From NCBI GenBank assembly GCA_023257525.1, contig JALRCB010000002.1, positions 1 through 36,184 of the forward strand: a stretch of 36,184 nucleotides of DNA, in the 5' to 3' direction. The notes under the pieces were generated by a model. The model did no database searches. It saw only the letters and a program-made list of their open reading frames with translations, and was not told the origin of the DNA. The position numbers and the translations under genes are program-made. Positions 1-23,308 of the stretch are shown one piece after another (position 1 is the stretch's first letter; every line of letters begins with the position of its first letter). Source of the DNA: Candidatus Nanopelagicales bacterium (GTDB taxonomy: Bacteria > Actinomycetota > Actinomycetes > S36-B12 > UBA5976).

Positions 1-26
1 ATGAGCGCCTAGCCTATGCAACAAGC

Positions 27-1115
27 TTGGCACTTTTAGGTGGCAATTTGGTCAAACGCGGGGTCGAGCAGGCCGATTTGAAACCTTCAGACCCGATGTG
101 GCTGAAGACCGAGCAAATCCTTGCCGATCACCACAGTAAATTCAGCAAGGCGCTCGCACACCACGGTGCTGTCCTCGAGACTATGCAGGCGAATTTACAA
201 GCTGGCTTTGTGAAAATTGGCGCTCTACTCTTAGCAGCGCTTATTGCGGGTATTGCAGCGCTTGCCTCAGCGCTTCAACTTAATAAGCACCTGAGCGAGC
301 AAGGCATCGGCGCAATGAGAGCGCAGTTTCAAGGCTTGCGTTCGCAAATGGATCAACTTGCCCATGCGCAGGCTGCCATGAGTGCTTCCGGGCGAGATCT
401 GTCTGCTGCCGGACGCGCAAGCGCGCGACAGGGTGCTGCCGTTTCGACGCGGTCAAGTGAGCCGGCGAGGGATGAGGGTCGAGAGACCGGGATTCGAGGA
501 TCCGTTATGAGTTCTGCAGTAGCGGCAGGCGTTGCCGCATCGGCTGGTTTGTCGCTTGCTGAGCTTGCAGCCCGCGTTGCGCTTTCGAGCGATTCAGAAG
601 ATGAAAAAGCCAACGAGAACGGATTCGAGGATCAGGATGCCTTGTTGGACGAGTCGAATTCCGATTCGAGGGTATCGGCACAATCGGAAGCAAATGGACA
701 TCAGTCTGGCGGATCAGAGGGACTGGCGCAAGAAATCGGTTCCGAAACAAGCGTTTCGGACGAGTCTGGGATACATACCGGGAGTTCTTTGCAGGAGTCA
801 GCTCAGCCTCACGCGAGTTCTGAATTGACTGCTGAAATTGATATATCCGCGACTGCGGATTCGCCCTTAGGGGGCCTCGCTGTTATGGCTCAGGGTACCA
901 CGGCGACTGAGGCGGAAATTCTTGTGCCCCGGCAGGGTGAGCAATTGGCGGCTGCAAGTAGTAGTGCTGACCCAACTGTTCAACGTGCCGACCTTGAAAC
1001 GTCGCAGGATGCTTCTGCGTCAAGTCCAGATAATCCTAACGGCCAAAATGCCGGTGCTTTACAACCATCAGAAAGCATAAATGCATCAAGGACTACGGAC
1101 GGTGCAAACGCCTGA
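27..1115 (+). CDS. Hypothetical membrane-anchored, acidic Ser/Ala-rich protein; possibly 5'-truncated by the window edge
   Basis: Long ORF with one hydrophobic helix (FVKIGALLLAALIAGIAALASAL), followed by a low-complexity acidic Ser/Glu/Asp-rich tail. The reading frame has no stop between nt 3 and the listed TTG start at 27, so the gene may begin upstream of the window. No recognisable family motif. Confidence 0.45.
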   Translation: MALLGGNLVKRGVEQADLKPSDPMWLKTEQILADHHSKFSKALAHHGAVLETMQANLQAGFVKIGALLLAALIAGIAALASALQLNKHLSEQGIGAMRAQFQGLRSQMDQLAHAQAAMSASGRDLSAAGRASARQGAAVSTRSSEPARDEGRETGIRGSVMSSAVAAGVAASAGLSLAELAARVALSSDSEDEKANENGFEDQDALLDESNSDSRVSAQSEANGHQSGGSEGLAQEIGSETSVSDESGIHTGSSLQESAQPHASSELTAEIDISATADSPLGGLAVMAQGTTATEAEILVPRQGEQLAAASSSADPTVQRADLETSQDASASSPDNPNGQNAGALQPSESINASRTTDGANA

Positions 1116-1476
1116 TACCAGTGATCGCTACATGCTTGTAAGCTTTGACGGAAGGCGCTACGCAATACCGCTAAAAATGTTGGAACGTGTGGTTGCTAAC
1201 ACACGGTGCGACCCCTGGATAGGCCGAGGCGATGTAAAAGGATACTCACACGTCGCAGGTTGGATGGTCTGGATACTCGATGCGAGCCAGGTTTTCGTCG
1301 ATTTTGAGGAGGTAAACGTTAATGGCAGTTGGCTTTTGGTTCTAAAGGAAGAACTTGGCCTTTCTAGGGTCGGCGTGCTTGCAGACGATATTAAAGGACC
1401 AGTTTCCCAGTCTAAATTGCAACATATCAAAAGACTTCAGCGCAGGAGTCTCGAAATGTCCCTAGACCAGCGGTAA
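1081..1476 (+). CDS. Small CheW-like domain protein
   Basis: YMLVSFDGRRYAIPLKMLERVV, VKGYSHVAGWMVWILDASQVF and WLLVLKEE..RVGVLADDIKGPV match the pattern of CheW-domain beta-strands (FLvF.lg.e.YaiPi..V.Ei / ikGvinlRG.ivPviDL / vivv....vGllVDeV). Alternative ATG at 1132 (MLVSF...) would avoid overlap with the previous ORF. The stop overlaps the next ATG (TAATG at 1474-1478). Confidence 0.55.
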   Translation: MHQGLRTVQTPDTSDRYMLVSFDGRRYAIPLKMLERVVANTRCDPWIGRGDVKGYSHVAGWMVWILDASQVFVDFEEVNVNGSWLLVLKEELGLSRVGVLADDIKGPVSQSKLQHIKRLQRRSLEMSLDQR

Positions 1477-3278
1477 TGATGCGCGCTCTTGAAAAGGGGC
1501 GGAGCCTTGTCAGCCCGCTTGGCCCGTTCTTTGTTCGTTACGGGCTGGTTTTAGTTCTTTCTATGGGTATGGTCGTTTGTATTTACCTTGGTGATCGCTT
1601 CGAACGTGAATTTACGGCCAATTTAGAGCAGGGATTTCAGCAACGCGTTGAACTCGGAGATTTAGCATCGTCTGTTCATCAGCTTCGGAAAATACTTGAA
1701 TCACCACGGGCCTTAGACCCAGGGTTTGTAGGTGGTCTCGTTGAAAGGATGAAGGAAGTTGAGGTTAAGGCTAAGGCTCAAGTAGATGCCGGTCGCATAG
1801 GCGAAATCTCGCTACCCACAAAAGAGCTTACTGTAATCGTCGGTATGCAACAAGGATTTGAGAGGTTGTCTGCGAGCGCAGGGCAGGTTGAGCGAGCGCA
1901 TAGCTTAAAACTAGCAATAAAGCCCCCCGAATCAGTCGATGGACCAGCGCTAAAGCGAGTGGGGGGGCTTCTTGATGACTATGTCAATGCTGCGGGTGCC
2001 TTGCGCAACTCACGTAGTGCTTCCTCGGGGTTAACATCCCTGCAGCAAGCTACCATGGCACTGGGAGAGAATCTGATCTCTGCTACAGTGGAATCGCGCC
2101 GAAAAACGACAGCTCAGGCATGGAGAGATGTCTTATTCCTTCTTCCTGCAGAGCGAGGCGATCTAGTCGATAGACTCCTTGCCGATGGACGCATGCTTGA
2201 AGATCTACAGAATCAGCGCCTCCGCGCCTTGTCGCGCCTTGAGCAAGTCGCAGCAAAGATCGATAGTGCGGAACGTCTGCTGCTCCAAAGTCGTTCGTCA
2301 GGCGGATTACTAGTTGTCTCGACCATTCTTACCTGGAGTGGGGTACTGTGTGGATTGCTGGGAATATTATCTAACGTTATTCAGCTTATTAGGTTGAACC
2401 GCATCACGGGTCGATCTTCGCATGAATCCCTCGAGTTGCTTGTTCCGCGGAGTGTACTAGCGACAGAACAGCACGATAACGGGTATGCTAAGACGACCGA
2501 TAACTCGTTGAATCCGACTGCCTCGGAAGAAGAGCAACTAATGGCCTCCCGAATTGCCAACGAGATCGTGCGGAAAGGAGCACGCGGTAGCGATAGTGAA
2601 GCTTTCATTGATGTAGCGTCCGAGGCACATACCGTCGTTGAATCAAAGGTTCAAGCGAAGCAAATTGTTTCCCTTGAATCGGAACCAGTAGAGAGTGTGA
2701 CCTCTGGCTATTGGATAGCCTCTGGTTCGATGGCAGAGCGCCGGGTTGCACTTCTCGATAGGCAGTCGCTTCAGCTTGAGCAGCATGTTCGAGCAGTCAT
2801 GGCCGCGGCTGAGACTTTGGCGGGTAGGATTGACGTTGTTGAGCAGTCACTGCAGCTGGCGGCAGAGGTTGATAGCGTTAATTCGGTTCAGGAATTGAGT
2901 GGGTTTCGACGTCGCATGGAAGAGCTGCAGTCAATTGCTATGAACCTATCGCTTGAAGTCGGAAATGGGGAGGCTCGTGAATCGACCCTCGACGAACTAG
3001 AGCGATTCAGCGACGAGCTTGAGGGTATGTCCGAAGAAGCAAAGCGTATCGTCGCTACCCAATCTGAGGGTGCATATGATCGACGTATTAGGTTGTCACT
3101 TGACGAGGCGCGTCGCATGGCTGCGGCAGCTGACACGTTGAGAGAACGAACTGAGCTTCTACTTGATGACGCACAGCGGTTTCGCAGGCACAGTGAGGCA
3201 TTGATTCGAGGTATCCAGGAGGGCGCTGTAGCTGAGTTGCCAGCTTCATATGTGCGACAACGAAGTATTGATGGCTAA
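1476..3278 (+). CDS. Two-TM membrane protein with MCP-like topology (helical periplasmic domain plus cytoplasmic coiled coil); function unknown
   Basis: TM1 is FFVRYGLVLVLSMGMVVCIYL and TM2 is LLVVSTILTWSGVLCGLLGILSNVIQLI, separated by about 240 aa of helical sequence. The C-terminal part is about 290 aa of heptad-like, E/R/L-rich sequence. Segment LQSIAMNLSLEVGNGEARES..FSDELEGMSEEAKRIV only weakly resembles the MCP hairpin tip (IA.QTNLLALNAAIEAARAGE.GRGFAVVA.EVR.LAerS). Translationally coupled to the preceding CheW-like gene. Confidence 0.5.
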   Translation: MMRALEKGRSLVSPLGPFFVRYGLVLVLSMGMVVCIYLGDRFEREFTANLEQGFQQRVELGDLASSVHQLRKILESPRALDPGFVGGLVERMKEVEVKAKAQVDAGRIGEISLPTKELTVIVGMQQGFERLSASAGQVERAHSLKLAIKPPESVDGPALKRVGGLLDDYVNAAGALRNSRSASSGLTSLQQATMALGENLISATVESRRKTTAQAWRDVLFLLPAERGDLVDRLLADGRMLEDLQNQRLRALSRLEQVAAKIDSAERLLLQSRSSGGLLVVSTILTWSGVLCGLLGILSNVIQLIRLNRITGRSSHESLELLVPRSVLATEQHDNGYAKTTDNSLNPTASEEEQLMASRIANEIVRKGARGSDSEAFIDVASEAHTVVESKVQAKQIVSLESEPVESVTSGYWIASGSMAERRVALLDRQSLQLEQHVRAVMAAAETLAGRIDVVEQSLQLAAEVDSVNSVQELSGFRRRMEELQSIAMNLSLEVGNGEARESTLDELERFSDELEGMSEEAKRIVATQSEGAYDRRIRLSLDEARRMAAAADTLRERTELLLDDAQRFRRHSEALIRGIQEGAVAELPASYVRQRSIDG

Positions 3279-3289
3279 GTGATTGGTAG

Positions 3290-4651
3290 GTGGTCGTGGA
3301 CGATCCAAACGATGATTTGTTCCTAATCGACGCAGAACAAGCCGTCCAGGAAATGTTGCAATATGGCAAGGGAGAAGGAGAGTTTTCTGTCGAAAGGGTA
3401 ATCGCAACCTCTGATTACCTAGCGTCGCTTCTCTGGTCAATTGGACTCGCAGATCATGGCGAAGCTGTTGATACCTTGTCACGTCATTTGAAAGAACTCG
3501 ATGCTGTATCTTCAAGGCGGTTGGCAAGAGACCTCTCAAGCTTGGTGATCGAGCAAATTCAAGCGATCAAGGCCGGGGATTCTATGAGAGATCAATCAAT
3601 AGCCCTGGGCCAACTTAAGGCGAGATTTCAGGACGCTTTTCCTGAAATCTCCAGAGCAGCAAATGGTGGCCAGAGTCAACAGGATGTTTCACAACCTACA
3701 AAAACAGCGTCAGGCCTTGATGAAGAACTCATTCGAGACGCTGCCGCAGCACTGCATGCCGTTGACCATTTAGCGAGTCTTCTAGGGAAGCAAACACCCC
3801 TGCACCAAGACAATCGCGATGGGATCAATGGCGATTCTCTGGATATCCCGAATTCACGTGTTAGCAATTCAGTTGTTTGCGAAGAGCTAGAACTAAATGA
3901 GGGGAAGGTGGTGAAACCACTGGAGAGCGAAGCTTACTCTCAGCCATGGTCTAACCCTTCAAAAGGGTCGAGTGCCTCGACCTTTGGGGACAACACATAC
4001 ACTGTTGACGAATCATTTCGCAAAGCCGTTGCGTTTCAAGGAATGGAGCCATGGCGTCAAGGGTTTTTAGGCGTATTAGAGTCGATTGATCAGATCGATC
4101 GGGTCGAATTAAGCCGTTGCCTGCCTAATTTCTTAATGCTTCGAGACGATACTGATATCGCTATGAGTGCGACATTAGGTAGAGCTTTGTTTGACCTTTT
4201 TTCGGTGGCCACGGGCAGTTCAGGTTTGGTTGAAGCTTCGTCTTCAGGAAACACAATTTCGTTAACGATTGAATTTAAGGTCCTTCCAGTCGTACCACAA
4301 CTCGGTTTACGAGTGCAGAGTCTTGGTGGGCGAGTACACATCGACTATAAGTTAAATCGCCTGAGTCTTACGCTGCCTACTTCCCTGCGATTGGTTAGAC
4401 TTGTTCAAGTCAAGATCGGCGAGAGACGATTTGCCTTTTCTTGGGCACAATTCATTAGTCATCGAGAATATGGAGAAGGGAAGACTATAGAGTTGCTAAT
4501 CGGGGATCACAGCGAATCGATTGTCGTTGATAGCATGGAAAGTCCTGCTATAGCGATCCGATATGAACTTCCTCGTGAATTTTGGAAACGTGATCAATAC
4601 AAGGGGATTGCGCTGACTGATCAGGGTCAATTTATCCCGATTTATGGGTGA
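3290..4651 (+). CDS. CheA-like protein lacking kinase motifs (P4 remnant plus CheW-like P5 domain); putative pseudokinase or scaffold
   Basis: GTG start preceded by GGTAGG. VQSLGGRVHIDYKLNRLSLTLPTSLRLVRLVQVKIGERRFAFSW aligns by eye with the CheA P4/P5 junction (MGG.v.i.S..G.GTt..i.LPLTLAIldgl.VrVgde.yaiPl). IELLIGDHSESIVVDSM and YKGIALTDQGQFIPIY resemble the end of P5 (lLvVDellGq.qvVvK / isGATILGDGrValIlD). G-box glycines (GxGT) and DDGxG are not present: LNR and IEFKV occupy those places. The stop overlaps the flgA start by 8 nt. Confidence 0.5.
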   Translation: MVVDDPNDDLFLIDAEQAVQEMLQYGKGEGEFSVERVIATSDYLASLLWSIGLADHGEAVDTLSRHLKELDAVSSRRLARDLSSLVIEQIQAIKAGDSMRDQSIALGQLKARFQDAFPEISRAANGGQSQQDVSQPTKTASGLDEELIRDAAAALHAVDHLASLLGKQTPLHQDNRDGINGDSLDIPNSRVSNSVVCEELELNEGKVVKPLESEAYSQPWSNPSKGSSASTFGDNTYTVDESFRKAVAFQGMEPWRQGFLGVLESIDQIDRVELSRCLPNFLMLRDDTDIAMSATLGRALFDLFSVATGSSGLVEASSSGNTISLTIEFKVLPVVPQLGLRVQSLGGRVHIDYKLNRLSLTLPTSLRLVRLVQVKIGERRFAFSWAQFISHREYGEGKTIELLIGDHSESIVVDSMESPAIAIRYELPREFWKRDQYKGIALTDQGQFIPIYG

Positions 4652-5357
4652 GATTTTTATCCGTGTTGGGGAGGCGAATGGACCAAAGCGTCTTTTCGCG
4701 GGGATCTTCGCAGTTTGCTTATTTTTCACTGAAGGTGTGCAAGCCAATGCTGAATGGAAGAATGCCATCGAGAAAGTTGTGAGAGACCAGGCTTTGCTTC
4801 AGTCCCAGACGCCATCGGTCGAATGGATTGATCCAAAGACTGATGCATTGCCGCAATGTTTGAATCCAAGAGTTTCTTTGCCTGCTACAACGCGTCCTGT
4901 GGGTCGACTGACTGTCAGTCTTCGTTGTGATTCGACCCGGTGGATTGGATCGCTCCAAATAAATATCAGTGCGCGAAGAAACTACTTGGCCTCATCAAGA
5001 GCGCTTCCTGCCGGTACTGTCATTGCCGAGGAGGACATGATTGCTTCAGAAGGGGATTGGTTCGGCCTTCCGGACGATGTGACAGCAGAGTCACGACTGG
5101 TTATTGGAAAGACGTTATCTAAGGGACTGATGAGCGGTGCACCCATAACCCTAAATTCGCTGCGTCAAACATCCGTTATTAAGAGTGGAGAACGGGTTCG
5201 AGTCGAGTTTGTAGGGGTCGGTTTCGCAGTTAGCGGAGAGGCTTTGGCGCTCGACTCAGGTTCTATCGAGGAGCAAATTAGAGTTCGGATGGCCAACGGG
5301 CAGGTTTTGTCTGTTAGGGTGGTAAAGCGTGGTGTTGTTGAGTTGCGGCGAGATTAA
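4644..5357 (+). CDS. flgA: Flagellar basal-body P-ring formation chaperone FlgA
   Basis: N-terminal signal-like hydrophobic segment. The C-terminal SAF/FlgA pattern is GERVRVEFVGVGFAVSGEALALDSGSIEEQIRVRMANGQVLSVRVVKRGVVEL. Position is immediately upstream of flgM-flgN. Confidence 0.85.
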   Translation: MGEIFIRVGEANGPKRLFAGIFAVCLFFTEGVQANAEWKNAIEKVVRDQALLQSQTPSVEWIDPKTDALPQCLNPRVSLPATTRPVGRLTVSLRCDSTRWIGSLQINISARRNYLASSRALPAGTVIAEEDMIASEGDWFGLPDDVTAESRLVIGKTLSKGLMSGAPITLNSLRQTSVIKSGERVRVEFVGVGFAVSGEALALDSGSIEEQIRVRMANGQVLSVRVVKRGVVELRRD

Positions 5358-5376
5358 TCGCCCGACAAGGGATTAG

Positions 5377-5766
5377 GTGAGCGATATGAACGTCCAATTT
5401 GGAAATGTAGGACAACTTGAGCAGCGTAGTTTGGATTCTTTAAAGGCATCGTCTCCCGGTGTTCAGGATCTGACAAAGCGGGTTGCCGTTGCACAAACAT
5501 CAGCGAAAGCTATTCAAGAGGTTATGGCAAAGTCAGCAGCTGCTGGTCAGTCTGCGACGCCTGCCCCTTCTGCTCAAGTAACTGTTGATGCGGCAAAACT
5601 GGGCAGAATCGCTGCTTCCGAAAAGACCACCGATCCCGATCAACTTGATACCGATAAGCTAGATGCGTTAAAGCAGCAAATTAAAGACGGTTCATTTGAG
5701 ATTGACTTTAGCTTGATAGCGACTCATCTGGCAGATCAAGCTCTGGGCGGCCGCAGTCGACGATAG
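5377..5766 (+). CDS. flgM: Anti-sigma-28 factor FlgM
   Basis: Small, unstructured-looking Ala/Ser/Gln-rich protein with the typical C-terminal motif (KLDALKQQIKDGSFEIDFSLIATHL). Sits between flgA and flgN. GTG at 5377; alternative ATG at 5386. Confidence 0.8.
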   Translation: MSDMNVQFGNVGQLEQRSLDSLKASSPGVQDLTKRVAVAQTSAKAIQEVMAKSAAAGQSATPAPSAQVTVDAAKLGRIAASEKTTDPDQLDTDKLDALKQQIKDGSFEIDFSLIATHLADQALGGRSRR

Positions 5767-5804
5767 TTCGATGACCATTTGGTGCTGAAAGTAATCAATC
5801 GTAA

Positions 5805-6209
5805 GTGACTAATCCGATCATGGGTTGGCAGACCCGGGAACTTATCGAGCAATTTGTGGCAGCGATGGCTCTTCAAAGACAGGCGTTGCTAGATAGTGAT
5901 TGGGATTCCCTCAAGAGAGCGATTGAATTGCTTACTGTCTCACTCACCAACATCAATTCATTTCCTGGCGGGTTGGAAGGTCTATCTGCATCATTAAACG
6001 AGCAGGATGACGAAAGTCGCTCCCAGTTGCGCTTACTATTGAGACAAGGCGACATCGACAGACAAGTCTCGAATACGATGTTGCGGATGAATCTGGCGAG
6101 GTTGAGTGCACTCAACGCGATCATGACATCTTCGCAAGATGTGAATACTTATCAATCAACCCAAGGTTTACCTGAAGATACGCCACAACGCATCTCCCAT
6201 CGCGTTTGA
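5805..6209 (+). CDS. flgN: Flagellar export chaperone FlgN-like
   Basis: 134-aa helical protein directly after flgM, which is the canonical flgMN order. Leu/Gln-rich helical sequence (LIEQFVAAMALQRQALLDSDWDSLKRAIE). GTG at 5805; alternative ATG at 5820. Confidence 0.7.
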   Translation: MTNPIMGWQTRELIEQFVAAMALQRQALLDSDWDSLKRAIELLTVSLTNINSFPGGLEGLSASLNEQDDESRSQLRLLLRQGDIDRQVSNTMLRMNLARLSALNAIMTSSQDVNTYQSTQGLPEDTPQRISHRV

Positions 6210-6217
6210 ATCAGATT

Positions 6218-6928
6218 CTAGTCGCTGCTTCTGGATTCTTCTTGTTCTTTGGCGAGCATCCCTCTCAGTCGAATCATCGCTTGCGTATGAAGCTGAGAAA
6301 TCCTACCTGGTGTTAGATCAAGAACGTAAGCGACTTCTCTAAAGCTTAAGTCTTGTTGATAGTGAAGAGCGAGAACCATGCGTTCGCGTTCAGGTAATTC
6401 TTTGAGTTTTTCCTCAATTCGCGCTGCTAACTGTTTGTGTTGTAGCGCTTTCATTTGATCTGCGTTCTCGTCTACGACATCCGGGAGTTCGTCGTCAACG
6501 ACAGTGATGCTCATGGCCGAGTCTAGAACGGCAAAATAATCATCAATACTCAACCCTAAGTGACTAGCGATCTCGTTATCTTCAGGCGGACGTCCTAAAG
6601 TTTGACGCAGCTCTTCAGCAGCCCGTTCGATCTGAGTGAGTCGGTCGCGGACATGCCGCGGGATAACATCATCTTCACGGAGCGAATCGTAGATTGATCC
6701 TCGAATACGGGCCTTCGCATAGGTTTCGAAGGATGCTCCAGGTTTAGGTTCGTAACGGTTGATCGCGTCGAGTAAACCCATCATACCTTCTTGGATTAAG
6801 TCGTCCAACTGCACATTTCTAGGTAATCGGGATGCAACTTGGACTGCGATGCGTCGAACCATCGGGGCGTATTGCTTTAGCTGTGCCTCAACGGTGTCGG
6901 TGTCGGAACCATACTTCCGCGGGCGCAT
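6218..6928 (-). CDS. fliA: Flagellar sigma factor FliA (sigma-28)
   Basis: Sigma-70 family region 2 (DLIQEGMMGLLDAINRYEPKPGASFETYAKARIRGSIYDSLR) and region 4 HTH (LSFREVAYVLDLTPGRISQLHTQAMIRLR). Length 236 aa. Lies downstream of flhF-flhG. Confidence 0.95.
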   Translation of the reverse strand: MRPRKYGSDTDTVEAQLKQYAPMVRRIAVQVASRLPRNVQLDDLIQEGMMGLLDAINRYEPKPGASFETYAKARIRGSIYDSLREDDVIPRHVRDRLTQIERAAEELRQTLGRPPEDNEIASHLGLSIDDYFAVLDSAMSITVVDDELPDVVDENADQMKALQHKQLAARIEEKLKELPERERMVLALHYQQDLSFREVAYVLDLTPGRISQLHTQAMIRLRGMLAKEQEESRSSD

Positions 6929-6963
6929 GTCGCAACTACTCTCTCGTCGAGATCAACAAAAGC

Positions 6964-7839
6964 TCAGGCAGATGCCTGCGAGTCGACGTCTTCCACCGAC
7001 TCAGACCTTGTTGAAACGCTAAGGGCGGAGTGATCTTTAATCACACCCTCGGGGAAGATTCTGCTCGCCATGAGTCTGTAAAGACTGGAAGGCATCATCG
7101 GCTCACTTTCGTCACCCTGCGCGGTTGCAAACTGCATTGCGCGGACCCATCCCAAGTAATCAAGAGGTTGATCAAGGAGTTCGTAGGCTTGACGTTGCAG
7201 TGACTCGAATGATTCATCGCCGATTTCTTGCGATCCACCGCCTACTGAAAGCACTGGAATCGGAGATCCACCAAAAAGCACGGCGAGCTCACTCACCATC
7301 TTCAAGCTTTTTTCGATTGCTGTGTCTCCAGTTCCAGATATCAGGATGTGTTCCATATCGTCTGCGAACAACTGGTGGGTGCTTCGATGGGGATCGGTGC
7401 TCGCGACAATCACAACATCCACGTCGATACCTGCTTGTTGTAAACGCTCCGCCAGGGTGGGGGGTTTTGCCTTCTTATCCTCTTTCGCTCGTCGGAGCTT
7501 TGTTGCAACGCAGTACCAAAGCCGGTCACCTACCGGTTTTACTACCTTTTCGATGCCAATCAGACCAGAAAACACTTGGCCAAGGTCATACCGAACCGGA
7601 AATGGCGTACCACCTAATAAGCTTCGATTAGACATGGGGACTTCGTCAACTAACAAAACCCTTTGGCCTGCTCGCCTTAGTGCATTTGCAGCACCAAGCG
7701 CAACCATCACAGTTGGGTCACCGTGTAGGGAACTAACAAGGCACCAAACCCGAGCATAACCTTCTCCGAAAAGCTGTCGGAGACCTGCTGCCTGATCTGA
7801 TTGGCCAAGACCTGAGCTAGGGCTTTGATTTTCCGTCAT
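6964..7839 (-). CDS. flhG: FlhG/FleN-like MinD/ParA-fold flagellar number regulator with a degenerate Walker A motif
   Basis: Canonical position between flhF and fliA. The N-terminal DQAAGLRQL matches the FlhF-activating DQAxxLR motif. MinD-like core is RVWCLVSSLHGDPTVMVALGAANALRRAGQRVLLVDE, but SSLHGDPTV replaces the deviant Walker A GKGGVGKT. Confidence 0.8.
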   Translation of the reverse strand: MTENQSPSSGLGQSDQAAGLRQLFGEGYARVWCLVSSLHGDPTVMVALGAANALRRAGQRVLLVDEVPMSNRSLLGGTPFPVRYDLGQVFSGLIGIEKVVKPVGDRLWYCVATKLRRAKEDKKAKPPTLAERLQQAGIDVDVVIVASTDPHRSTHQLFADDMEHILISGTGDTAIEKSLKMVSELAVLFGGSPIPVLSVGGGSQEIGDESFESLQRQAYELLDQPLDYLGWVRAMQFATAQGDESEPMMPSSLYRLMASRIFPEGVIKDHSALSVSTRSESVEDVDSQASA

Positions 7840-11444: not shown

Positions 11445-11549
11445 TGATCGATGACTGATCTGCTAAACAAAAATTAAAAGGGGCCCGTTAACCAAAGCAT
11501 GGAACATCTAGAGTCTAGGTTTGGGGTGAAAAGGGCGAGCCCTACTTTT

Positions 11550-11557
11550 GGGGGGGG
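11550..11557. repeat. Homopolymeric G8 (C8 on the minus strand) tract in the flhA upstream region
   Basis: Direct reading: acttttGGGGGGGGtaag. It lies 106-113 nt upstream of the flhA start codon at 11444. Confidence 0.9.
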
Positions 11558-11580
11558 TAAGTTCTGCTACGCAAATGCGC

Positions 11581-11617
11581 TTGAAAATTTTGGATACAGG
11601 TCTAATCAAATTTTCAA
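11581..11617. repeat. Perfect 10-bp inverted repeat with a 17-nt spacer, upstream of flhA
   Basis: TTGAAAATTT (11581-11590) and AAATTTTCAA (11608-11617) are exact reverse complements. The site lies in the 294-bp gap between the flaG stop and the flhA start. Confidence 0.85.
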
Positions 11618-11671
11618 TACTCGCCGTAATACTGATATGGACGCTAATTTCGATGCAATTGGCACTAATGC

Positions 11672-11708
11672 AAAACCCGCCGGACCCATGGATAGGTTGG
11701 CGGGTTTT
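11672..11708 (-). terminator. Rho-independent terminator after fliC-flaG (potentially bidirectional)
   Basis: AAAACCCGCC (11672-11681) pairs with GGCGGGTTTT (11699-11708). The GC-rich stem is flanked by an A-run on one side and a T-run on the other, about 30 nt downstream of the flaG stop. The 17-nt loop is rather large. Confidence 0.6.
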
Positions 11709-11738
11709 ACTTGGCGCTATGACTTGACAGGCGAGCTA

Positions 11739-12149
11739 TCAAGCTTTTTTGTTGACAAGCAAACTTGCGAGGTAGTCGATAGTGCGAGCGAGTTCAACGA
11801 CTTCAGGGGCAGGAATTTGGCGGACAACCTCATTGGATTGAGAGTCCCTAACTACCATCACCGTCGAGTGACTGACATTATCGAATCTGATATCCAGGTT
11901 CCGATTCATAGAACTAGCGAAAGAGCGGATTTTCTCACCGGCAACTTCAACCGACTCTTTCGTGATTCTGGCGGACTCATGAACCGAGGGGGCTTTAGAA
12001 CTTCTTGCCTCCGTGATTCGAGCAGAAACCTGCTCGACCGACGGACCCCTCGATTGATGATCGGTAGATTGCTTGGAAACTTCGGCTTTCGAAGCAGGCG
12101 GACCCTGGCTAGGAACCGCCGTGCTCAAACTTACGGACGTGGTCATCAT
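11739..12149 (-). CDS. flaG: Flagellar protein FlaG
   Basis: The C-terminal pattern LDIRFDNVSHSTVMVVRDSQSNEVVRQIPAPEVVELARTI is characteristic of the FlaG family (l.f..de..g..vVkv.D..tgEviRqIP.ee.l). Immediately downstream of a flagellin gene. Confidence 0.8.
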   Translation of the reverse strand: MMTTSVSLSTAVPSQGPPASKAEVSKQSTDHQSRGPSVEQVSARITEARSSKAPSVHESARITKESVEVAGEKIRSFASSMNRNLDIRFDNVSHSTVMVVRDSQSNEVVRQIPAPEVVELARTIDYLASLLVNKKA

Positions 12150-12185
12150 AGCCTCCTAGCTAAGAATAGACTTTTATTAGGCCCT

Positions 12186-13085
12186 TTACTTCAAGAGCGC
12201 CAAGACTACGTTAGGCTGCGCGTTTGCTTGAGACAGCATAGCAGTAGCAGCTTGTTGGAGAATTTGGGTCTTAGTCAAATTCGCGGTTTCAGCTGCGTAA
12301 TCAGTATCAACAACCCGACTGTTGGCCGCGCTGAGGTTCTCATGAAGGGCAGTAAGGTTGGCAATGTTGTGGTTCAAGCGGGTTACGGTAGTTCCGAATT
12401 TAGCCCTAAGCGTCGCAACTTCTGTAAGGGCGGCATCTGCATAAGCGGAGTACGACGAAAACTGAGAAGTTGCGTTTATCTTACCAGTGCCATCGTCGTT
12501 GAAATAAGTGTCGTTGATTTCGCCTTCAGCAAGAATATTGGTGTAAAGCTTCGTGAATTCTTCGCTTTCTCCGACGCTCTGGAGATTTACCTTATTGATT
12601 TCTACTATCCCGATACCGGTAGTTGTGTTGAGTTCTGGACCGGTTTGAAAGGTAAGTGCGCCAGTAGAGGAAAGCAACTTATTGTTGTTAAATGTTGTTC
12701 TGTCGGAAATAGCGACGATTTCTTTCGCCAAATTTCCCATCTCAACCGAAAGATAGGCTCTTTGGTCGCTCGAGAGAGCGCCGTTCATGCCTTGAGTGGC
12801 AAGTTCTTTAAAACGTTGCAACATGCTAGAGATTTCTGCAAGAGCACCTTCAGCGGTCTGAGCAATACCAATCGCATCATTTGCATTTCTAATGGCTACG
12901 GAAGTGGTATTGATGCTAGCAGTGAGTTTTTGCGAAATTCCCATACCCGCAGCATCGTCTTGGGCGCGATTGATTCTCGACCCGCTAGACAATTTCTCGA
13001 ACTGGCCGCCCAGTTTATTTTGAGCATTAGTAAGGTAGCGCTGAGCGGAAATCGACGCCATGTTAGTCATGAGTACGGATGCCAT
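12186..13085 (-). CDS. fliC: Flagellin, short 299-aa form
   Basis: Conserved flagellin N-terminus (NMASISAQRYLTNAQNKLGGQFEKLSSGSRINRAQDDAAGMGIS...AIRNANDAIGIAQTAEGAL) and C-terminus (SRVVDTDYAAETANLTKTQILQQAATAMLSQANAQPNVVLALLK). Confidence 0.95.
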   Translation of the reverse strand: MASVLMTNMASISAQRYLTNAQNKLGGQFEKLSSGSRINRAQDDAAGMGISQKLTASINTTSVAIRNANDAIGIAQTAEGALAEISSMLQRFKELATQGMNGALSSDQRAYLSVEMGNLAKEIVAISDRTTFNNNKLLSSTGALTFQTGPELNTTTGIGIVEINKVNLQSVGESEEFTKLYTNILAEGEINDTYFNDDGTGKINATSQFSSYSAYADAALTEVATLRAKFGTTVTRLNHNIANLTALHENLSAANSRVVDTDYAAETANLTKTQILQQAATAMLSQANAQPNVVLALLK

Positions 13086-13142
13086 GAATTTCTCCAGTGA
13101 GTTAAACGTTTTGACTGTTTGGGCGATTGCCCCCTGTACTGG

Positions 13143-13266: not shown

Positions 13267-14397
13267 ATGGCTATCCCCGCTTCAGTGCTAAATACAAATA
13301 TTGCTTCGCTCATCGCGCAGAGAAATTTGGCAGGCGCACAAACCCAGTTGTCCACCTCGGTAGAGCGTTTGTCGTCAGGTTTGCGCATCAACAGAGCTAA
13401 AGATGATGCTTCGGGTATGGCCGTAGCTAGCGTTATTGGGTCACAAATCAAGACCATGGGAACCGCGCACCGAGTTGTGAACGATGCAATCTCGATGATG
13501 CAAACCGCTGAAGGGGCCCTAATGGAAGGGTCCGGGATGTTGCAAAGGATGAAGGAACTCGTCACTCAGGGTTCAAACGACTCGATGTCCAAAGATCAGT
13601 ACTTCTTTCTTGTCCAGGAAATGCTGCAGCTAATGCAGGAACTAGGAAATGTGGCTGGTCGTACGACTTTCAACGGAAATAATTTACTTGGCACATTTCG
13701 GGTTGCTGAGCAGGAAGACGGCGTCGTAAAGGCAATTGAGGGAACGCCACTACCTGGAGCGGGGCAAAGTGGGCCTTGGGAATTTATGACTGGTCCTGGT
13801 AGTGACGATTTCATGACAATTGAACAGCCTGCCATGTGGGCCACATACACCGAAATGGTTGATAAAACTGGAAACGATCGCGGCTATGTTGGAGGAACGC
13901 TTGCGGTTGGCGCCCTCAATGCGCTTTATACGCGCATTGCATTTCTTGCGGATACCTCGGATCAAGGCGGCGCTGTTCTTACGGGCATGGGTTATGACGT
14001 TTTCTCAAAATCGGAATTTTCCCTCAAGTCTGGTGGTGACCCTCAATTTGCCGGTCGTCCCTCAGCCCCGAATCAGGAGGTTCTCGATAAAGCGGGCCAC
14101 AAGACGACCGCAGATAAGCTTTCACTCAACGATTTGATTGATTTGTCAATTAACCAGATCAACGCACACAGATCCTACTTTGGAGCGTTCTATAGCCGTT
14201 TAGAGGCTAACGTTAGGAACTTGTCTTCGCAAACGGAAAACCTGACAGCCGCTCTAAGTCGAGTTCAGGACACGGATTACGGGGTGGAAACGGCAAATCT
14301 CACGAGGGTCCAGATACTTCAGCAGGCGGCGACTGCGATGTTGGCGCAAGCGAATGCGATGCCTAATGTCGTTCTTGGACTGTTGCGGCAGCAGTAA
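13267..14397 (+). CDS. fliC: Flagellin, 376-aa paralogue
   Basis: Flagellin N-terminus (NTNIASLIAQRNLAGAQTQLSTSVERLSSGLRINRAKDDASGMAVAS...AISMMQTAEGAL) and C-terminus (SRVQDTDYGVETANLTRVQILQQAATAMLAQANAMPNVVLGLLRQQ). RBS AAGGAG lies 7 nt upstream of the ATG. Confidence 0.93.
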   Translation: MAIPASVLNTNIASLIAQRNLAGAQTQLSTSVERLSSGLRINRAKDDASGMAVASVIGSQIKTMGTAHRVVNDAISMMQTAEGALMEGSGMLQRMKELVTQGSNDSMSKDQYFFLVQEMLQLMQELGNVAGRTTFNGNNLLGTFRVAEQEDGVVKAIEGTPLPGAGQSGPWEFMTGPGSDDFMTIEQPAMWATYTEMVDKTGNDRGYVGGTLAVGALNALYTRIAFLADTSDQGGAVLTGMGYDVFSKSEFSLKSGGDPQFAGRPSAPNQEVLDKAGHKTTADKLSLNDLIDLSINQINAHRSYFGAFYSRLEANVRNLSSQTENLTAALSRVQDTDYGVETANLTRVQILQQAATAMLAQANAMPNVVLGLLRQQ

Positions 14398-16548: not shown

Positions 16549-17697
16549 ATGAATCAGATACCTTCGGTTGGTTCGGATGCAGCTATAGCACCTCGGACAG
16601 GCTCGGGAAGCCCACAATCGTCGCCGCAGCAACGAGCAGATGCAGTAGCAACGGTCGTTTCTGACAGTATTTCGGCCCGGGCTGACCCTGGGGTCATGCT
16701 CAAGGTTGTTCCGCCGCCTCAAACGAGAGAGGGGGGCGTCGCTGTACAGCGTGATGAGGCAACGAACAATGCACTGCTCGCGCTTTTGCAACTGCTGAGA
16801 GACCCCGGCCGAGTTGAAGGCGAATCGGTTGACTCCGCTACCGACGCGGACCAAGCGATTGCAGCGCGATTAGCGCGATTCTTAGCTAATTTACCTCCTG
16901 ATGTACAAAAGGCAATCGAGTCAGCGAAGACGCCTGAACTCGCTAAGCTCATTCGTCTCTCGGCGATGACCGCGCCTGGGATTAGGGAGGCACCTGCAGT
17001 CCTTGCAGGTCGATCGGACCCTCTCGCAACAGACCCAATGCTTGGCATGGAAGAGCTTCTTAGGGATATCGAATCATCACCCGTGTTTAAACTGACTGCA
17101 AAACTAAGAGACCTTGTAAGCACGGAAAGCGTGTCAACGCGCTTAGGTGAGTCACCTGCACGTTTCGAAGCGAATCAGACACCGAGGACCGAAGCTGGCG
17201 CCTATTCCCAAGCTGCAAACGGCACAACTCAGGGTTTTTTAAATTTGCTCAACGAGGCTGCGAATTCTGCTCAGCCTTCTTACCAGGATAATAGTCCTCG
17301 GCTCGCTGTGGGAGCTGAAATAGCCCAGAATTTTGACGCGGGTGATCTTCAGCAGGCCGTCAAGGACGGCCTTAGGCTCTTGATGGATGGCCGTCTTATT
17401 TGGCAAGGTGAAATTGTTCCCGGAAGCCCGCTGCGATTTGAACGAAGTGATGCTTGGGGAACATCTGCTGAATCCCCCGGGGGTATGGAGAAGGGCACGG
17501 TACTGAAAATTCAACTAGAACATCCGGAATTGGGTCGGATTGAGTTGAGAGCACTTGGACTCGGGGGGCAAGTAAACATTCGGCTTTTTGGCTCAGAGCC
17601 CGCAATTTCAATGATGCTCGGGGCGCTACCTAAGATGAATGACCGCTTGAAGCAGGTTGGTCTATCAGGCACCCAGATCTCTGTAGAATCCCACTGA
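16549..17697 (+). CDS. FliK-like hook-length-control domain protein (second copy in the window)
   Basis: The C-terminal segment VLKIQLEHPELGRIELRALGLGGQVNIRLFGSEPAISMMLGALPKMNDRLKQVGLSG matches the FliK C-terminal (Flg_hook) pattern l.L.P.eLG.v.v.l....g.v.v.f......r..l...l..Lr..L...Gl. The N-terminal part is low-complexity and Pro/Ala/Ser-rich. Confidence 0.7.
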   Translation: MNQIPSVGSDAAIAPRTGSGSPQSSPQQRADAVATVVSDSISARADPGVMLKVVPPPQTREGGVAVQRDEATNNALLALLQLLRDPGRVEGESVDSATDADQAIAARLARFLANLPPDVQKAIESAKTPELAKLIRLSAMTAPGIREAPAVLAGRSDPLATDPMLGMEELLRDIESSPVFKLTAKLRDLVSTESVSTRLGESPARFEANQTPRTEAGAYSQAANGTTQGFLNLLNEAANSAQPSYQDNSPRLAVGAEIAQNFDAGDLQQAVKDGLRLLMDGRLIWQGEIVPGSPLRFERSDAWGTSAESPGGMEKGTVLKIQLEHPELGRIELRALGLGGQVNIRLFGSEPAISMMLGALPKMNDRLKQVGLSGTQISVESH

Positions 17698-18462: not shown

Positions 18463-19836
18463 TCAATCTGGTATCTCAAATCCCTGTTCTCTCCACTGCT
18501 TGAGCTTATAGCGCAATGTCCGTTCAGAGATACCTAAAATTTCAATAGCTCTTCGCCGACTGCCTCCAACTTGCTCTAGCACATGAAGAATGTGTTCACG
18601 CTCGAGCTTCCGAATGTCGCCCTGAGGTTCGTGCAACTTGACCGCCTGCGAATGTTGTCGAGTGGCGGGTAACAACTCGGCCGGACTGACAAACTCATGT
18701 ACGGGAATCTCTATCGCAAGGTCTGCCGGTTCGATCCAAATGCCATCACAAAGAAGCAAACCCCTTTGAATCGTATTTTCTAATTCACGTACGTTGCCAG
18801 GCCAAGCATGTGAGTAGAGTTGCTTCCTCGCGCGGTCTGACAGTCTGGACTCGGGTTGCCCCATACTCGCTCGATACCTCAATAAGAATCGTTCCGCTAG
18901 CGGCAGTATGTCATCGCGTCGCTCCCTAAGGGGTGGTATCTTCAGCGGGAAAACATTGATTCGATAAAACAAGTCTTCGCGAAATTCGCTCTTTGCAACC
19001 TTGCGTGAGAGATCTTGATTCGTTGCAGCAAGCACCCTTACGTCAAGCTGGATCGTCTGGTGAGACCCGACCCGTTCAACTTGTTTTTCCTGTAGAACTC
19101 GGAGGAGCTTTGCCTGCAAGTCGAGCGGCATCTCCCCAATTTCATCGAGAAGTATGGTGCCCCCCTGGGCAACTTCGAACTTTCCGGGTTGACTCTTGAT
19201 TGCGCCGGTAAATGCGCCTCGTTCATGTCCGAACAGTGTTGGCTCAAGCAAGGCACCTGGAATTGCCGCGCAGTTAATGGCTACAAATGGAAACTTCGAA
19301 CGATTAGATCGCTCATGAATAAACCTCGCCATCACCTCCTTGCCGCTGCCGGATTCTCCAGTCAAGAGGACGGTCGCATCAGTTTGAGCAACCCTGGCAA
19401 GCCGTTGAATGAGTTGTCTCGTGATGGCATCAACAGCGACTGGACCGTCTGCGCCGAGCGGCTGGCTTGAATCGTCGAGCGGTAGATACCTTCGAACTAC
19501 ATCAATAAACTGGTCAGGCTTAAACGGTTTCAGGAGGAAATCACGAGCTCCTCCCTTGAGAGCTTCAACAGCTGTCTTTGCATCAGCGTAGGCTGTCATT
19601 AAGACGACTGGGAGTTCTGGTCGACGACTGCGGGCTTCAAACAGCAGGTCAAGTCCCGATTTATGGGGTAGGCGGATGTCCGAAACCACAGCGCACCAGC
19701 TGGGATCATCGAGTTCACGAATCGCTTCCTCCGCTGATCCAAATGACTTAAATTCAATCGACTCGAGGGAAAGCGTTACCGCAAGCGCCTCGCGCAACGG
19801 TTCGTCATCTTCGATCAGCAGAATTCGATGTGGCAC
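18463..19836 (-). CDS. fleR: Sigma-54-dependent two-component response regulator (FleR/FlrC type)
   Basis: REC domain (ILLIEDD...[15 protein letters not shown]...KPF). AAA+ sigma-54 activator domain (GESGSGKE Walker A, GAFTGA loop, ILLDEIGEM Walker B). C-terminal Fis-type HTH ([20 protein letters not shown]). GTG start. Confidence 0.9.
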
Positions 19837-21289: not shown

Positions 21290-21388
21290 CGACTTACATT
21301 CGTGCTGTACTTCGGGTCGGCAAAATTTGCCCCCCGGCAAAACCTGCTGAATAATTCGGTTGAACTTTACAACGAGACTTATAGAACT

Positions 21389-23308
21389 ATGGCCGATGTC
21401 AACCCCGGACTTGCGGCGCAAGCTGAAAATGGTGCGACTGTTATTGGTGTGAATCCAAATGCTATCGTGCAAGAGGAGGTTGCACCGCCCAAAGTCGAGC
21501 GAATGAATCGCCCAGGTGGGCCTAAGACGCTTGCTGATCGCTGGCAGGAGGTCGTTGGCCGCGTTAGTGAACTGCCTCCGCTTCGAAAGGTGCTTCTTGC
21601 CGTATCGATTTTGCTCGTTGCAGTGACGGTTGTTTTGGTAGCTGCCTCCGGGGATAGCAAGGATGACTACAAGGTACTTTTTTCGAATGTGAACGACAAA
21701 GACGGTGCTGCGATCGTGGCAGCATTGGAGCAAATGAAAGTTCCACACCGATTTACAGAGGGTGGTGGAGCTATCTTGGTCCCGGCTGACAAGGTTTACG
21801 ACGCAAGGTTGAAACTCGCAGGACAAGGTCTTCCCAAAGCGGGTAACGTCGGCTTCGAGCTTCTTGAGAATCAAAAGCTTGGGACGTCTCAGTTCGTTGA
21901 GCAGGTGAATTACCAACGAGCCCTTGAATCAGAGTTATCTGGTTCGATCAAGACACTGGCGCAAGTTCGAGATGCAAGAGTTCATCTCGCGATACCTAAA
22001 ACCTCAGCCTTCTTGCGAGATCAGCCCAAACCTACCGCATCTGTGGTGCTTACGCTACATCCGGGGCGAGTCGTTGATGATCAGCAGGTCACGGCGATTA
22101 CGCACCTTGTTTCCTCTTCGATACCTCAGCTAGCGCCATCCATGGTGACTGTTGTTGACAGCGATGGGGGGCTTCTTGCTCCAAATGCTTCGAGGGGTGC
22201 GGCAGCTGGAATGGACGCTGCTCAGATTAAGTATGTCGGTGAGGTTGAAAACCAAGTTTCAAGACGGATCGTTACAATTCTCGAGCCTGTAACTGGTCGG
22301 GACAACGTGCGGGCTCAAGTAGCTGTCGATGTCGATTTCACTCAAAGCGAGCGCGCCGAGGAAATCTTCAAGCCGAACTCAGGGCAAAACCCAGCAAGTA
22401 TTCGGTCACAACAAAATCTCGAAGCGAGCGGTCCGGTTACGAGCGCTGGGGGCATTCCAGGCGCGCTAAGCAATCAACCACCGCAAGGCGGACAGGCGCC
22501 TGTCGATGGCCAACCGGGTCAGGGTCAGGCGCAACCTCCTGGTACACAGAGCCCGGTATCGACGAATGCAAACAGAAAAGAGCAGACGGTTAACTACGAA
22601 GTTGACAGAGCGATTCAGACGGTTAGAGGACCGCGGGCATCTGTGAAGCGCGTTTCTAGTGCGGTTATTGTGAATTACAAAAAGACAGTTGACGCGGATG
22701 GAAACGTAAAGGAAACACCATATTCGCAGCAAGAGCTCCAGCAGATGACGGCGCTTGTTCGAGATGCGATGGGTTTTTCCCAGCAAAGGGGGGACTCGGT
22801 TTCGGTTGTGAGCATTCCGTTTTCTCCACCCGTTATTGATGAGCCGCCGTTTTGGAAACAGGCAACCTTTGCAAGCGTGATGAAGGAGTTTTTCAAGTTT
22901 TTGATTATTGCAACTGTGCTCGGCTTAGTAACCGTTTTCTTGGTACGACCAATTCTCTTTCCGCCTCCACCTAAGGTTGTTGAGGAAGAGCAGCGGATCG
23001 AGGAAGAATTTGATGAACGTGTTAAAGCAGAATTGCAGGCCATGTCGCCCGCCGCACGAGAGAAACGTCGACTTGAGCTTGAGCTGGAGCGTGAACGTAG
23101 GCGTTTGCAAGAAGAAGAAGAGCGCCAACGCCTCGAGGAAGAACGACGGATTCTCGAGGACAAACGCAAGCGTGAGGAGGAGGAAAAGGCGGCTGAATAC
23201 GAAGAGCTGCTAGCTTACGCCAAGGAGTTTGTCCAAAAAGATCCGCGTGTCGTCGCAGCGATATTCAAACAATGGTTACAAGAAGATGTGGAAAAAGGTT
23301 TGGCTTGA
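21389..23308 (+). CDS. fliF: Flagellar MS-ring protein FliF
   Basis: Matches seen: YKVLFSNVNDKDGAAIVAALEQMKVPHRF..GGGAILVPADKVYDARLKLAGQGLP, VQILEN-type LENQKLGTSQF, and AVIVNYK. Two TM helices. The C-terminal DPRVVAAIFKQWLQED is the usual FliG-binding tail. ATG at 21389 (MADVNPG) is preferred over the track start at 21302. Confidence 0.95.
   Translation: MADVNPGLAAQAENGATVIGVNPNAIVQEEVAPPKVERMNRPGGPKTLADRWQEVVGRVSELPPLRKVLLAVSILLVAVTVVLVAASGDSKDDYKVLFSNVNDKDGAAIVAALEQMKVPHRFTEGGGAILVPADKVYDARLKLAGQGLPKAGNVGFELLENQKLGTSQFVEQVNYQRALESELSGSIKTLAQVRDARVHLAIPKTSAFLRDQPKPTASVVLTLHPGRVVDDQQVTAITHLVSSSIPQLAPSMVTVVDSDGGLLAPNASRGAAAGMDAAQIKYVGEVENQVSRRIVTILEPVTGRDNVRAQVAVDVDFTQSERAEEIFKPNSGQNPASIRSQQNLEASGPVTSAGGIPGALSNQPPQGGQAPVDGQPGQGQAQPPGTQSPVSTNANRKEQTVNYEVDRAIQTVRGPRASVKRVSSAVIVNYKKTVDADGNVKETPYSQQELQQMTALVRDAMGFSQQRGDSVSVVSIPFSPPVIDEPPFWKQATFASVMKEFFKFLIIATVLGLVTVFLVRPILFPPPPKVVEEEQRIEEEFDERVKAELQAMSPAAREKRRLELELERERRRLQEEEERQRLEEERRILEDKRKREEEEKAAEYEELLAYAKEFVQKDPRVVAAIFKQWLQEDVEKGLA

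Follow-up and report, generated by a model that had tools for sequence, protein, structure and literature searches.

CheA is regarded as the catalytic center that no chemosensory system does without. In a survey of these systems, every CheA had a kinase domain detectable by HMMER, and the CheW domain was found to be exclusive to chemosensory systems (PMC10542144). Here, we describe a locus on contig JALRCB010000002.1 that departs from this picture. The analyzed stretch of DNA, hereafter the window, is 36,184 nt long, and seven open reading frames (ORFs), all on the + strand, fill its bases 1-6209: ORF1 to ORF4 and, directly after them, flgA, flgM, and flgN. On balance, the evidence favors the reading that ORF1 to ORF4, with two further genes upstream, encode a complex that derives from a chemosensory core but has lost catalysis, and that these genes have become a fixed part of the flgA-flgM-flgN transcription unit. 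Descent from a chemosensory operon is proposed because three elements adjoin at this locus, namely, a CheW domain (ORF2), a complete fold in the domain order of CheA (ORF4), and a receptor-shaped membrane protein (ORF3). ORF4 has no sequence match to CheA and is, therefore, invisible by construction to HMMER-based surveys.

Four described systems, Pil-Chp, ParP/ParC/HubP, CheA3/CheA4, and FrzB, each share one feature with this block, but all of them run with an active kinase. In the Pil-Chp system, the genes are ordered pilI-pilJ-chpA, that is, adaptor, receptor, and CheA-like protein, the same order as ORF2, ORF3, and ORF4. The likeness extends to the CheW domain of ORF2, the P1-P3-P4-P5 order of CheA folds in ORF4, and the putative PilJ-like sensor and the receptor topology of ORF3. 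Moreover, Hpt domains without the histidine occur in ChpA, a CheA of the type IV pilus (Tfp) class (PMC10542144), and the P1-like domain of ORF4 likewise has no conserved histidine. Given the CheW-receptor-CheA gene order, the PilJ-like sensor, and the histidine-less Hpt domains of ChpA, an ancestral operon of the Pil-Chp (Tfp-class) type is plausible. Unlike Pil-Chp, ORF4 has no ATP-binding motif, a shortened P4, and no phospho-acceptor histidine; the block is not accompanied by CheY/PilG/PilH, CheR, or CheB in the window; and ORF3 shows no MCPsignal or HAMP similarity. The block also sits in the flgA-flgM-flgN unit, not in a pilus or che cluster, and adds three membrane proteins to the set, namely, a PDZ protein (ORF1) and two proteins, A and B.

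The second parallel is with the ParP/ParC/HubP (FimV) system of Vibrio and Pseudomonas. At this locus, too, a ParA/MinD-family protein adjoins the flagellar genes; this FlhG-like protein belongs to the same ATPase family as ParC. ParP is described as a non-catalytic, CheW-like protein that inserts into arrays through methyl-accepting chemotaxis proteins (MCPs) and CheA and ties the arrays to a pole anchor (PMC5706961), and HubP/FimV is described as a membrane landmark with a periplasmic domain, a transmembrane (TM) segment, and an acidic cytoplasmic region (PMC12918733). ORF1 shares this layout. The differences are that HubP/FimV carries LysM and C-terminal FimV/TPR domains, whereas ORF1 carries a PDZ domain in their stead, and that the partner of ParP is an active CheA, whereas the CheA-like protein here is inactive and the FlhG-like protein has no P-loop. 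The third parallel is CheA3 of Cereibacter (Rhodobacter) sphaeroides, a CheA homologue that has no kinase domain, works with the kinase CheA4, and is placed in a receptor cluster via its P5 domain (PMC10542144, PMC6829392). CheA3, however, keeps a phosphorylatable Hpt domain that is served by CheA4 of the same operon, whereas ORF4 retains a degenerate P4 fold and has no kinase partner in the block. Finally, FrzB of Myxococcus xanthus is CheW-like but shortened or altered, and part of the canonical interaction surface is missing from it (PMC6952110), in which it is comparable to ORF2, which covers only part of the CheW profile (see below); FrzB, unlike ORF2, acts within the active Frz phosphorelay. 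In the literature that was searched, neither a CheA-fold protein with a dead kinase nor a chemosensory-type block in flgA-flgM-flgN is described, in line with an earlier annotation made from the DNA letters alone (hereafter, the sequence-only reading), which knew of no described system of this composition.

These parallels bear on an alternative that we regard as unlikely, namely, that another region of the genome encodes a normal chemotaxis system and the module merely assists it, with ORF2 and ORF4 entering arrays built around a real CheA and tethering them near the flagellar pole. ParP enters arrays by binding MCPs and CheA, CheA3 acts together with CheA4, ORF1 resembles HubP/FimV in layout, the FlhG-like neighbor is related to ParC, and the window spans 36 kb only, so that che genes may lie outside it. 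Against this explanation, the block encodes its own receptor-like protein and a complete CheA-shaped protein instead of a single adaptor, and the P1-like domain of ORF4, unlike the Hpt domain of CheA3, has no conserved histidine to take up phosphate.

The kinase-dead CheA-fold protein is encoded by ORF4 (3290-4651, +; 453 aa), the true start of which is probably GTG 3296, where the translation (MDDPNDDLF...) matches the homologues. An AlphaFold2 (AF2) model built on an alignment of 21 family members reached a mean predicted local distance difference test (pLDDT) score of 80, with 272 residues scoring at least 90. In this model, the domain order is that of CheA minus P2: a P1-like helical bundle (residues 6-125), a disordered linker of variable length, conserved P3-like helices (142-167 and 234-250) that flank a disordered insert, a shortened P4-like alpha/beta domain (259-363), and a P5/CheW-like beta-barrel (368-452). 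When the model was compared with the PDB by Foldseek, CheA P3-P4-P5 chains took all of the top eight places (E-values 2.5e-9 to 1.6e-7), with 8c5v_A (2.5e-9) as the best, followed by 6s1k_A, 1b3q, 3ja6_C, 2ch4, and 3ur1. The alignments to these P3-P4-P5 chains cover 340-385 columns and include the P3-like helices. Next in the list are histidine-kinase catalytic domains, the CheA P1 entry 2lp4, which is matched by the N-terminal bundle (4.5e-3), and the CheW entry 2qdl_B (3.4e-2). The P5-like barrel falls within the matches to CheA P4-P5 (4jpb_A, E-value 1.6e-3, TMt 0.54), a match at the level of the fold.

The link between ORF4 and CheA comes from structure comparison only. At the sequence level, ORF4 has no match in Pfam, NCBIfam, or the PDB sequences, even when searched as a 21-sequence profile. 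No sequence route from ORF4 to CheA or CheW was found: both large-scale searches returned its own family alone, as 2 clusters in a word-indexed search of 5.8 billion proteins and as 27 clusters, all of the same family, in an exhaustive profile search of 1.84 billion representatives. Across the 21 family members, neither DxGxG nor GxGxG is present in the P4-like domain, and Asn or His is conserved in no alignment column; the window ORF4 has a His at position 56 that few other members share. Pfam searches of ORF4 for HATPase_c and Hpt domains were likewise negative. The P4-like part comprises about 105-130 residues across the family, compared with about 185 residues for the P4 domain of CheA. 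The P4 of ORF4 is devoid of the ATP lid and of the N, G1, and G2 motifs, and its P1 has no conserved histidine. Conservation is instead found in the N-terminal bundle and, in or close to the P5-like barrel, in motifs that include GGRxE, P[AS]SxRLLR, WAQ, and RRRDRYRG. The description of this protein in the sequence-only reading as CheA-like and without kinase motifs is, thus, borne out by its fold and by the missing motifs.

ORF2 (1081-1476, +) encodes 131 aa; in some contigs, the gene is called as 114 aa, and ATG 1132 may be the start. The protein matches the Pfam CheW model PF01584 with 25.5 bits (E-value 1.1e-5), above the gathering score of 23.5; its orthologue at locus L009 scores 32.6 bits and that at locus L020 scores 19.6 bits, below the threshold. 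The pI is 8.85, and the last 20-25 residues form a basic, probably helical tail. By its profile match, ORF2 is a short, basic CheW-like protein, which agrees with its original annotation as a minimal CheW-like protein. Comparison by hhalign of ORF2 and of the P5 domain of ORF4 with Escherichia coli CheW and with each other yielded nothing significant; the alignment of ORF2 with E. coli CheW is in the right register, yet it does not count as evidence by itself.

The receptor-like membrane protein is encoded by ORF3 (1476-3278, +; 600 aa), which shares the sequence TAATG at 1474-1478 with ORF2 as stop and start. Hydropathy and the AF2 model (pLDDT 75.5) both indicate the order TM, periplasmic sensor, TM, and cytoplasmic hairpin: TM1 spans residues ~15-42 and TM2 residues ~276-308, with a conserved periplasmic helical bundle (~43-275) between them in the model, then a variable linker predicted to be disordered (313-414). 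The cytoplasmic part ends in a helical hairpin, the two arms of which (419-496 and 502-583) comprise 78 and 82 residues and are joined by a turn at 497-501. The two best Foldseek matches of the bundle in the PDB are the periplasmic domain of PilJ (7zjr, 2.3e-3; 8wdf, 5e-3), and the TorS sensor ranks 18th in the same list. The tip segment (481-520) is conserved at 0.62-0.70 between variable flanks at 0.40, and the base of the hairpin is conserved at 0.8-0.9. A resemblance seen by eye between LAMNLSLQVxSGE at the tip and the MCP tip motif LALNAAIEAARAGE failed a shuffle control and is not counted as evidence. ORF3 is receptor-like in architecture and cannot be filed as an MCP. For the protein that the sequence-only reading gave an MCP topology, the topology and the hairpin were recovered and a PilJ-like sensor is suggested by a weak match, whereas homology to the MCP signaling domain was not recovered. 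Altogether, profile and structure searches with AlphaFold and Foldseek returned a CheW match for ORF2, CheA matches for ORF4, and a weak PilJ match for the sensor of ORF3, and no characterized family claimed any of the block proteins in Pfam, NCBIfam, PDB, or protein-cluster searches.

Several of these results weigh against derivation from a chemosensory core complex. ORF2 and both orthologues align only to positions 2-92 of the 138 positions of the CheW profile, that is, to two thirds of it, and the Pfam CheW model detects the P5-like domain in none of the 21 ORF4 family members. The PilJ match of ORF3 is weak (TM-score 0.35-0.48) and involves an all-helical fold. Four comparisons of ORF3 with the MCP signaling domain were negative: Pfam searches with three orthologues gave no MCPsignal (PF00015) match at E-values up to 1, nor any HAMP or PilJ match; the ORF3 profile found no MCP signaling domain among the PDB sequences; hhalign against Tsr gave an E-value of 0.21; and an ORF3 hidden Markov model scored against the same Tsr sequence did no better than shuffles, its best rank being 38 of ~2157 scored. 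The most conserved cytoplasmic part of ORF3 is the base of the hairpin and not the tip, the reverse of canonical receptors. In addition, the carriers are known only from metagenome assemblies of uncultured organisms.

The negative comparisons and the conserved hairpin base of ORF3 would fit a different explanation, in which ORF2 and ORF4 are CheW-fold adaptors reused in some other membrane complex together with ORF1, ORF3, A, and B, ORF3 is an unrelated coiled-coil protein, and there is no lattice; such a complex could be, for example, a periplasm-spanning accessory structure of the flagellum or an envelope-stress sensor acting on FlgM/FliA. We consider this improbable, given that three consecutive genes for a CheW domain, a complete fold in CheA order, and a two-TM protein that combines an equal-armed hairpin with a sensor of the chemoreceptor type are hard to account for unless they descend together from a chemosensory operon. 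The proteins encoded upstream of ORF2 also enter into this comparison.

ORF1 is open from base 3 of the window, is listed from base 27, and ends at 1115 (+), so that the window holds only its C-terminal ~371 aa; the frame runs past the window edge, and the full-length protein on contigs L003 and L008, from the window's own population, and L009, from a relative, comprises 588-646 aa. It consists of a basic N-terminus, TM1, a periplasmic PDZ domain, TM2, and an acidic, low-complexity cytoplasmic tail. The PDZ domain is supported by matches to the Pfam families PDZ_6 and PDZ_2 (E-values 6e-9 to 9e-11), and its closest sequences in the PDB are the PDZ domains of DegQ, DegP, and RseP. The tail has a pI of 4.28, with 40 acidic (D+E) versus 16 basic (K+R) residues. 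The orthologue in L020, the most divergent lineage (4950-6107; 385 aa), lacks the long acidic tail, so that not every version of the module includes it. Neither a Pfam scan nor comparison with PDB sequences revealed a protease domain in ORF1, and no LysM, FimV, or TPR match was found. The sequence-only reading saw an acidic TM protein; the acidic tail and a TM segment are indeed present, but the window shows only the 3' part of the gene, and the full protein adds TM1 and the PDZ domain. PDZ domains of the DegP/DegQ/RseP type function in anti-sigma and envelope-stress cascades, and ORF1 shares its unit with flgM, both of which speak for the envelope-stress variant of the reuse explanation; the missing protease domain speaks against it.

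Two genes without family assignment, encoding protein A (~224 aa) and protein B (~281 aa), always precede ORF1 (L003, 2479-3153 and 3144-3989; L009, 6183-7696; L020, 3365-4953). Protein B has an N-terminal TM segment followed by a coiled coil, and with 81-90% identity between lineages, in comparisons that give 28-41% for ORF4, it is the best-conserved protein of the block. A search for a wider distribution of protein B returned 21 homologues from the same clade as the block carriers and no match beyond it. That the best-conserved member is one without family assignment is a further point in favor of reuse in another complex. Upstream of gene A, the sequence varies, with fliB in one lineage, ftsH-folP-glmM in another, and metabolic genes in a third; therefore, the unit starts at A. 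In the window's own population, the gene just upstream of A is a divergently oriented FliB_C gene, flagellin lysine methyltransferase-like (L003, 1124-2470, -). Hence, the block of four genes recognized initially is real, but the conserved block comprises six.

The order A, B, ORF1, ORF2, ORF3, ORF4, flgA, flgM, flgN is constant in every locus, and fliA, the FlhG-like gene, and flhF follow flgN on the opposite strand in all of them. This synteny is kept in the relatives L016 (FliA 83% identical) and L020 (FliA 58%, FlhF 44%), and in L020, the genes of the block still overlap one another. The link between the block and flgA-flgM-flgN thus holds in every relative found, as the neighborhood survey proposed with the sequence-only reading had to show if the two belong together. 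The family is narrowly distributed. ORF3 has 74 homologues, every named one of which comes from a betaproteobacterial metagenome-assembled genome (MAG); among 185,579 species reference genomes, four contain ORF3, all of them MAGs of freshwater Burkholderiales or Betaproteobacteria, and a scan of the reference genomes with ORF4 patterns found nothing. The carriers found are uncultured freshwater Burkholderiales.

Identity between lineages is 53-63% for ORF3, 35-56% for ORF2, and 28-47% for ORF4, compared with 83-92% for FliA. The fast evolution of ORF4, combined with the loss of all catalytic motifs, could be taken to mean that the block is a functionless, decaying remnant of a chemotaxis operon. 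This appears very improbable: no lineage, not even the one with FliA at 58%, has lost the intact and overlapping ORFs or their synteny; domain cores are conserved across family members while linkers vary; the models of ORF3 and ORF4 are confident; and the nonsynonymous divergence (dN) is well below the synonymous divergence (dS), for which every available pair is saturated. The dN/dS ratios that could be computed are 0.1-0.4, similar to flgA; with saturated synonymous sites, these ratios support a qualitative statement only. Because the ORFs remain intact despite this saturation and dN/dS is in this range, the sequence comparison indicates that the block genes are maintained by selection.

The junctions within the window are tight. 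Besides the TAATG shared by ORF2 and ORF3, the spacer between ORF3 and ORF4 is 11 nt, and the TGA stop of ORF4 (4649-4651) overlaps the ATG of flgA (4644) by 8 nt, so that the four adjacent, tightly packed genes on one strand 5' of flgA-flgM-flgN read as originally reported. The gene for the P-ring chaperone FlgA (4644-5357, +) matches the Pfam families ChapFlgA (3.7e-20) and SAF (3.7e-8), and flgM (5377-5766, +), encoding the anti-sigma-28 factor, matches FlgM (1.9e-7). The gene for the FlgN-like export chaperone (5805-6209, +), found directly 3' of flgM in every locus compared, is assigned by this position and by a weak Pfam FlgN hit (E-value 0.13, below threshold). In bases 1-7000, 8 terminator-like sites were counted compared with 6.4 +/- 2.7 in shuffled sequences, that is, no excess, and pattern scans for sigma-54 and sigma-70 promoters performed no better than in shuffles. 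The evidence for co-transcription of the block with flgA-flgM-flgN is the gene overlaps and the spacing.

Two features of the flagellar genes that follow bear on the role of the block. The gene in the FlhG/FleN position (6964-7839, -), between flhF and fliA, encodes a protein that aligns with FleN over its whole length and has no Walker A P-loop: in all five lineages compared, SSLHGDPTV occupies the place of the deviant Walker A motif GKGGVGKT in FleN. The protein has no Pfam or NCBIfam match, and its identity is 74-85% among close lineages and 40% in L020; to judge from the alignment, a conserved pseudo-ATPase seems likely. The protein and the block are conserved together, and only position links the two. 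The second feature is FliM (28133-29182, +), which has normal FliM and FliMN_C domains and an N-terminus, LSESPVSEAVKATADDQPDDDLGNDVLK..., that does not contain LSQxEIDALL, the canonical CheY-binding motif of FliM; the ORF cannot start further upstream because fliL ends at 28087. This single observation would fit a motor outside ordinary control by CheY, and it argues against the module serving a normal chemotaxis system, as does the absence of any che gene in the roughly 20 loci examined. Within the window, Pfam scans of all plausible ORFs detected no CheY, CheR, CheB, or CheZ, confirming the initial impression, and the sole receiver domain belongs to a sigma-54 activator (18463-19836).

Returning to the derivation from a chemosensory core complex, we infer the following mechanism. 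In analogy to receptors with CheW and CheA, dimers of ORF3 would use their conserved hairpin tip to bind both ORF2 and the P5 domain of ORF4, and ORF4 would dimerize via its P3-like helices, resulting in a core-unit-like or array-like membrane assembly of the three proteins. No phosphate would be made or passed on, and the output would, therefore, work through conformation, localization, or sequestration. The likeliest output element would be the conserved P1-like bundle, held, as P1 in CheA, on a long flexible linker and acting through partner binding and not phosphoryl transfer; candidate partners are FlhF, the P-loop-less FlhG-like protein, or FliA/FlgM. ORF1, with its PDZ-TM-acidic layout, and proteins A and B would probably be accessory or anchor subunits in the membrane. 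Such a complex would, on the whole, let the assembly, number, or placement of flagella respond to a cue from the envelope or periplasm, or to cell position, and would not steer swimming; a function in flagellar biogenesis or placement is suggested because of the fixed linkage to flgA-flgM-flgN and the flhF and P-loop-less FlhG-like neighbors. In its fullest form, which we put forward tentatively, this would be the first pseudo-chemosensory system, a lattice of receptor, CheW-like, and CheA-like proteins that has given up phosphorylation and serves as a transmembrane structural sensor or scaffold for flagellar assembly, number, or position, together with an inactivated FlhG-like protein and a motor that is perhaps not steered by CheY.

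Beyond the block and flgA-flgM-flgN, the window holds a flagellar gene cluster of the polar type. It contains fliA, the FlhG-position gene, flhF, flhA, flaG, two flagellin genes, fliD, fliS, and fliE; the sigma-54 activator and its kinase, fliF, fliH, fliI, fliJ, fliK, fliL, fliM, and fliN; and fliOP, fliR, flgB, flgC, and flgD. The flagellin genes are divergent (12186-13085, -, and 13267-14397, +), and flaG (11739-12149, -) lies next to the first of them. A 533-aa ORF antisense to flaG and this flagellin gene (11499-13100, +) has no family match and was discarded as spurious. No fliG was found between fliF (21302-23308, +) and the fliH-like gene (23361-24053, +), and the FliF ORF has a C-terminal stretch of ~160 aa without domain assignment. 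Two proteins contain a FliK-type Flg_hook domain: one encoded after fliS (16549-17697, +; 382 aa; 28.3 bits, just below the threshold) and the other in the usual fliK position (25958-27226, +; 422 aa). The FlhB domain (Bac_export_2) was not detected anywhere in the window, and a 296-aa ORF after fliR (31739-32629, +) has no family match. Between the fliR region and flgB, the cluster also encodes a 459-aa protein (32642-34021, +) with a eukaryotic-type (alpha) carbonic anhydrase domain in residues 240-439 (E-value 3.3e-14).

The practical reach of these findings is limited, as the host range is narrow and the carriers, uncultured freshwater Burkholderiales, are available from metagenomes only. 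Nevertheless, a pseudo-CheA with partners of its own contradicts the stated generalization that all CheA homologues have a kinase domain. If the proposed reading is true, the receptor/CheW/CheA architecture would have been kept for a purely structural or conformational job, analogous to eukaryotic pseudokinases. The linkage to flgA-flgM-flgN, next to FlhF and an FlhG without a P-loop, may then offer a new handle on the positioning of polar flagella beyond the gammaproteobacterial models.

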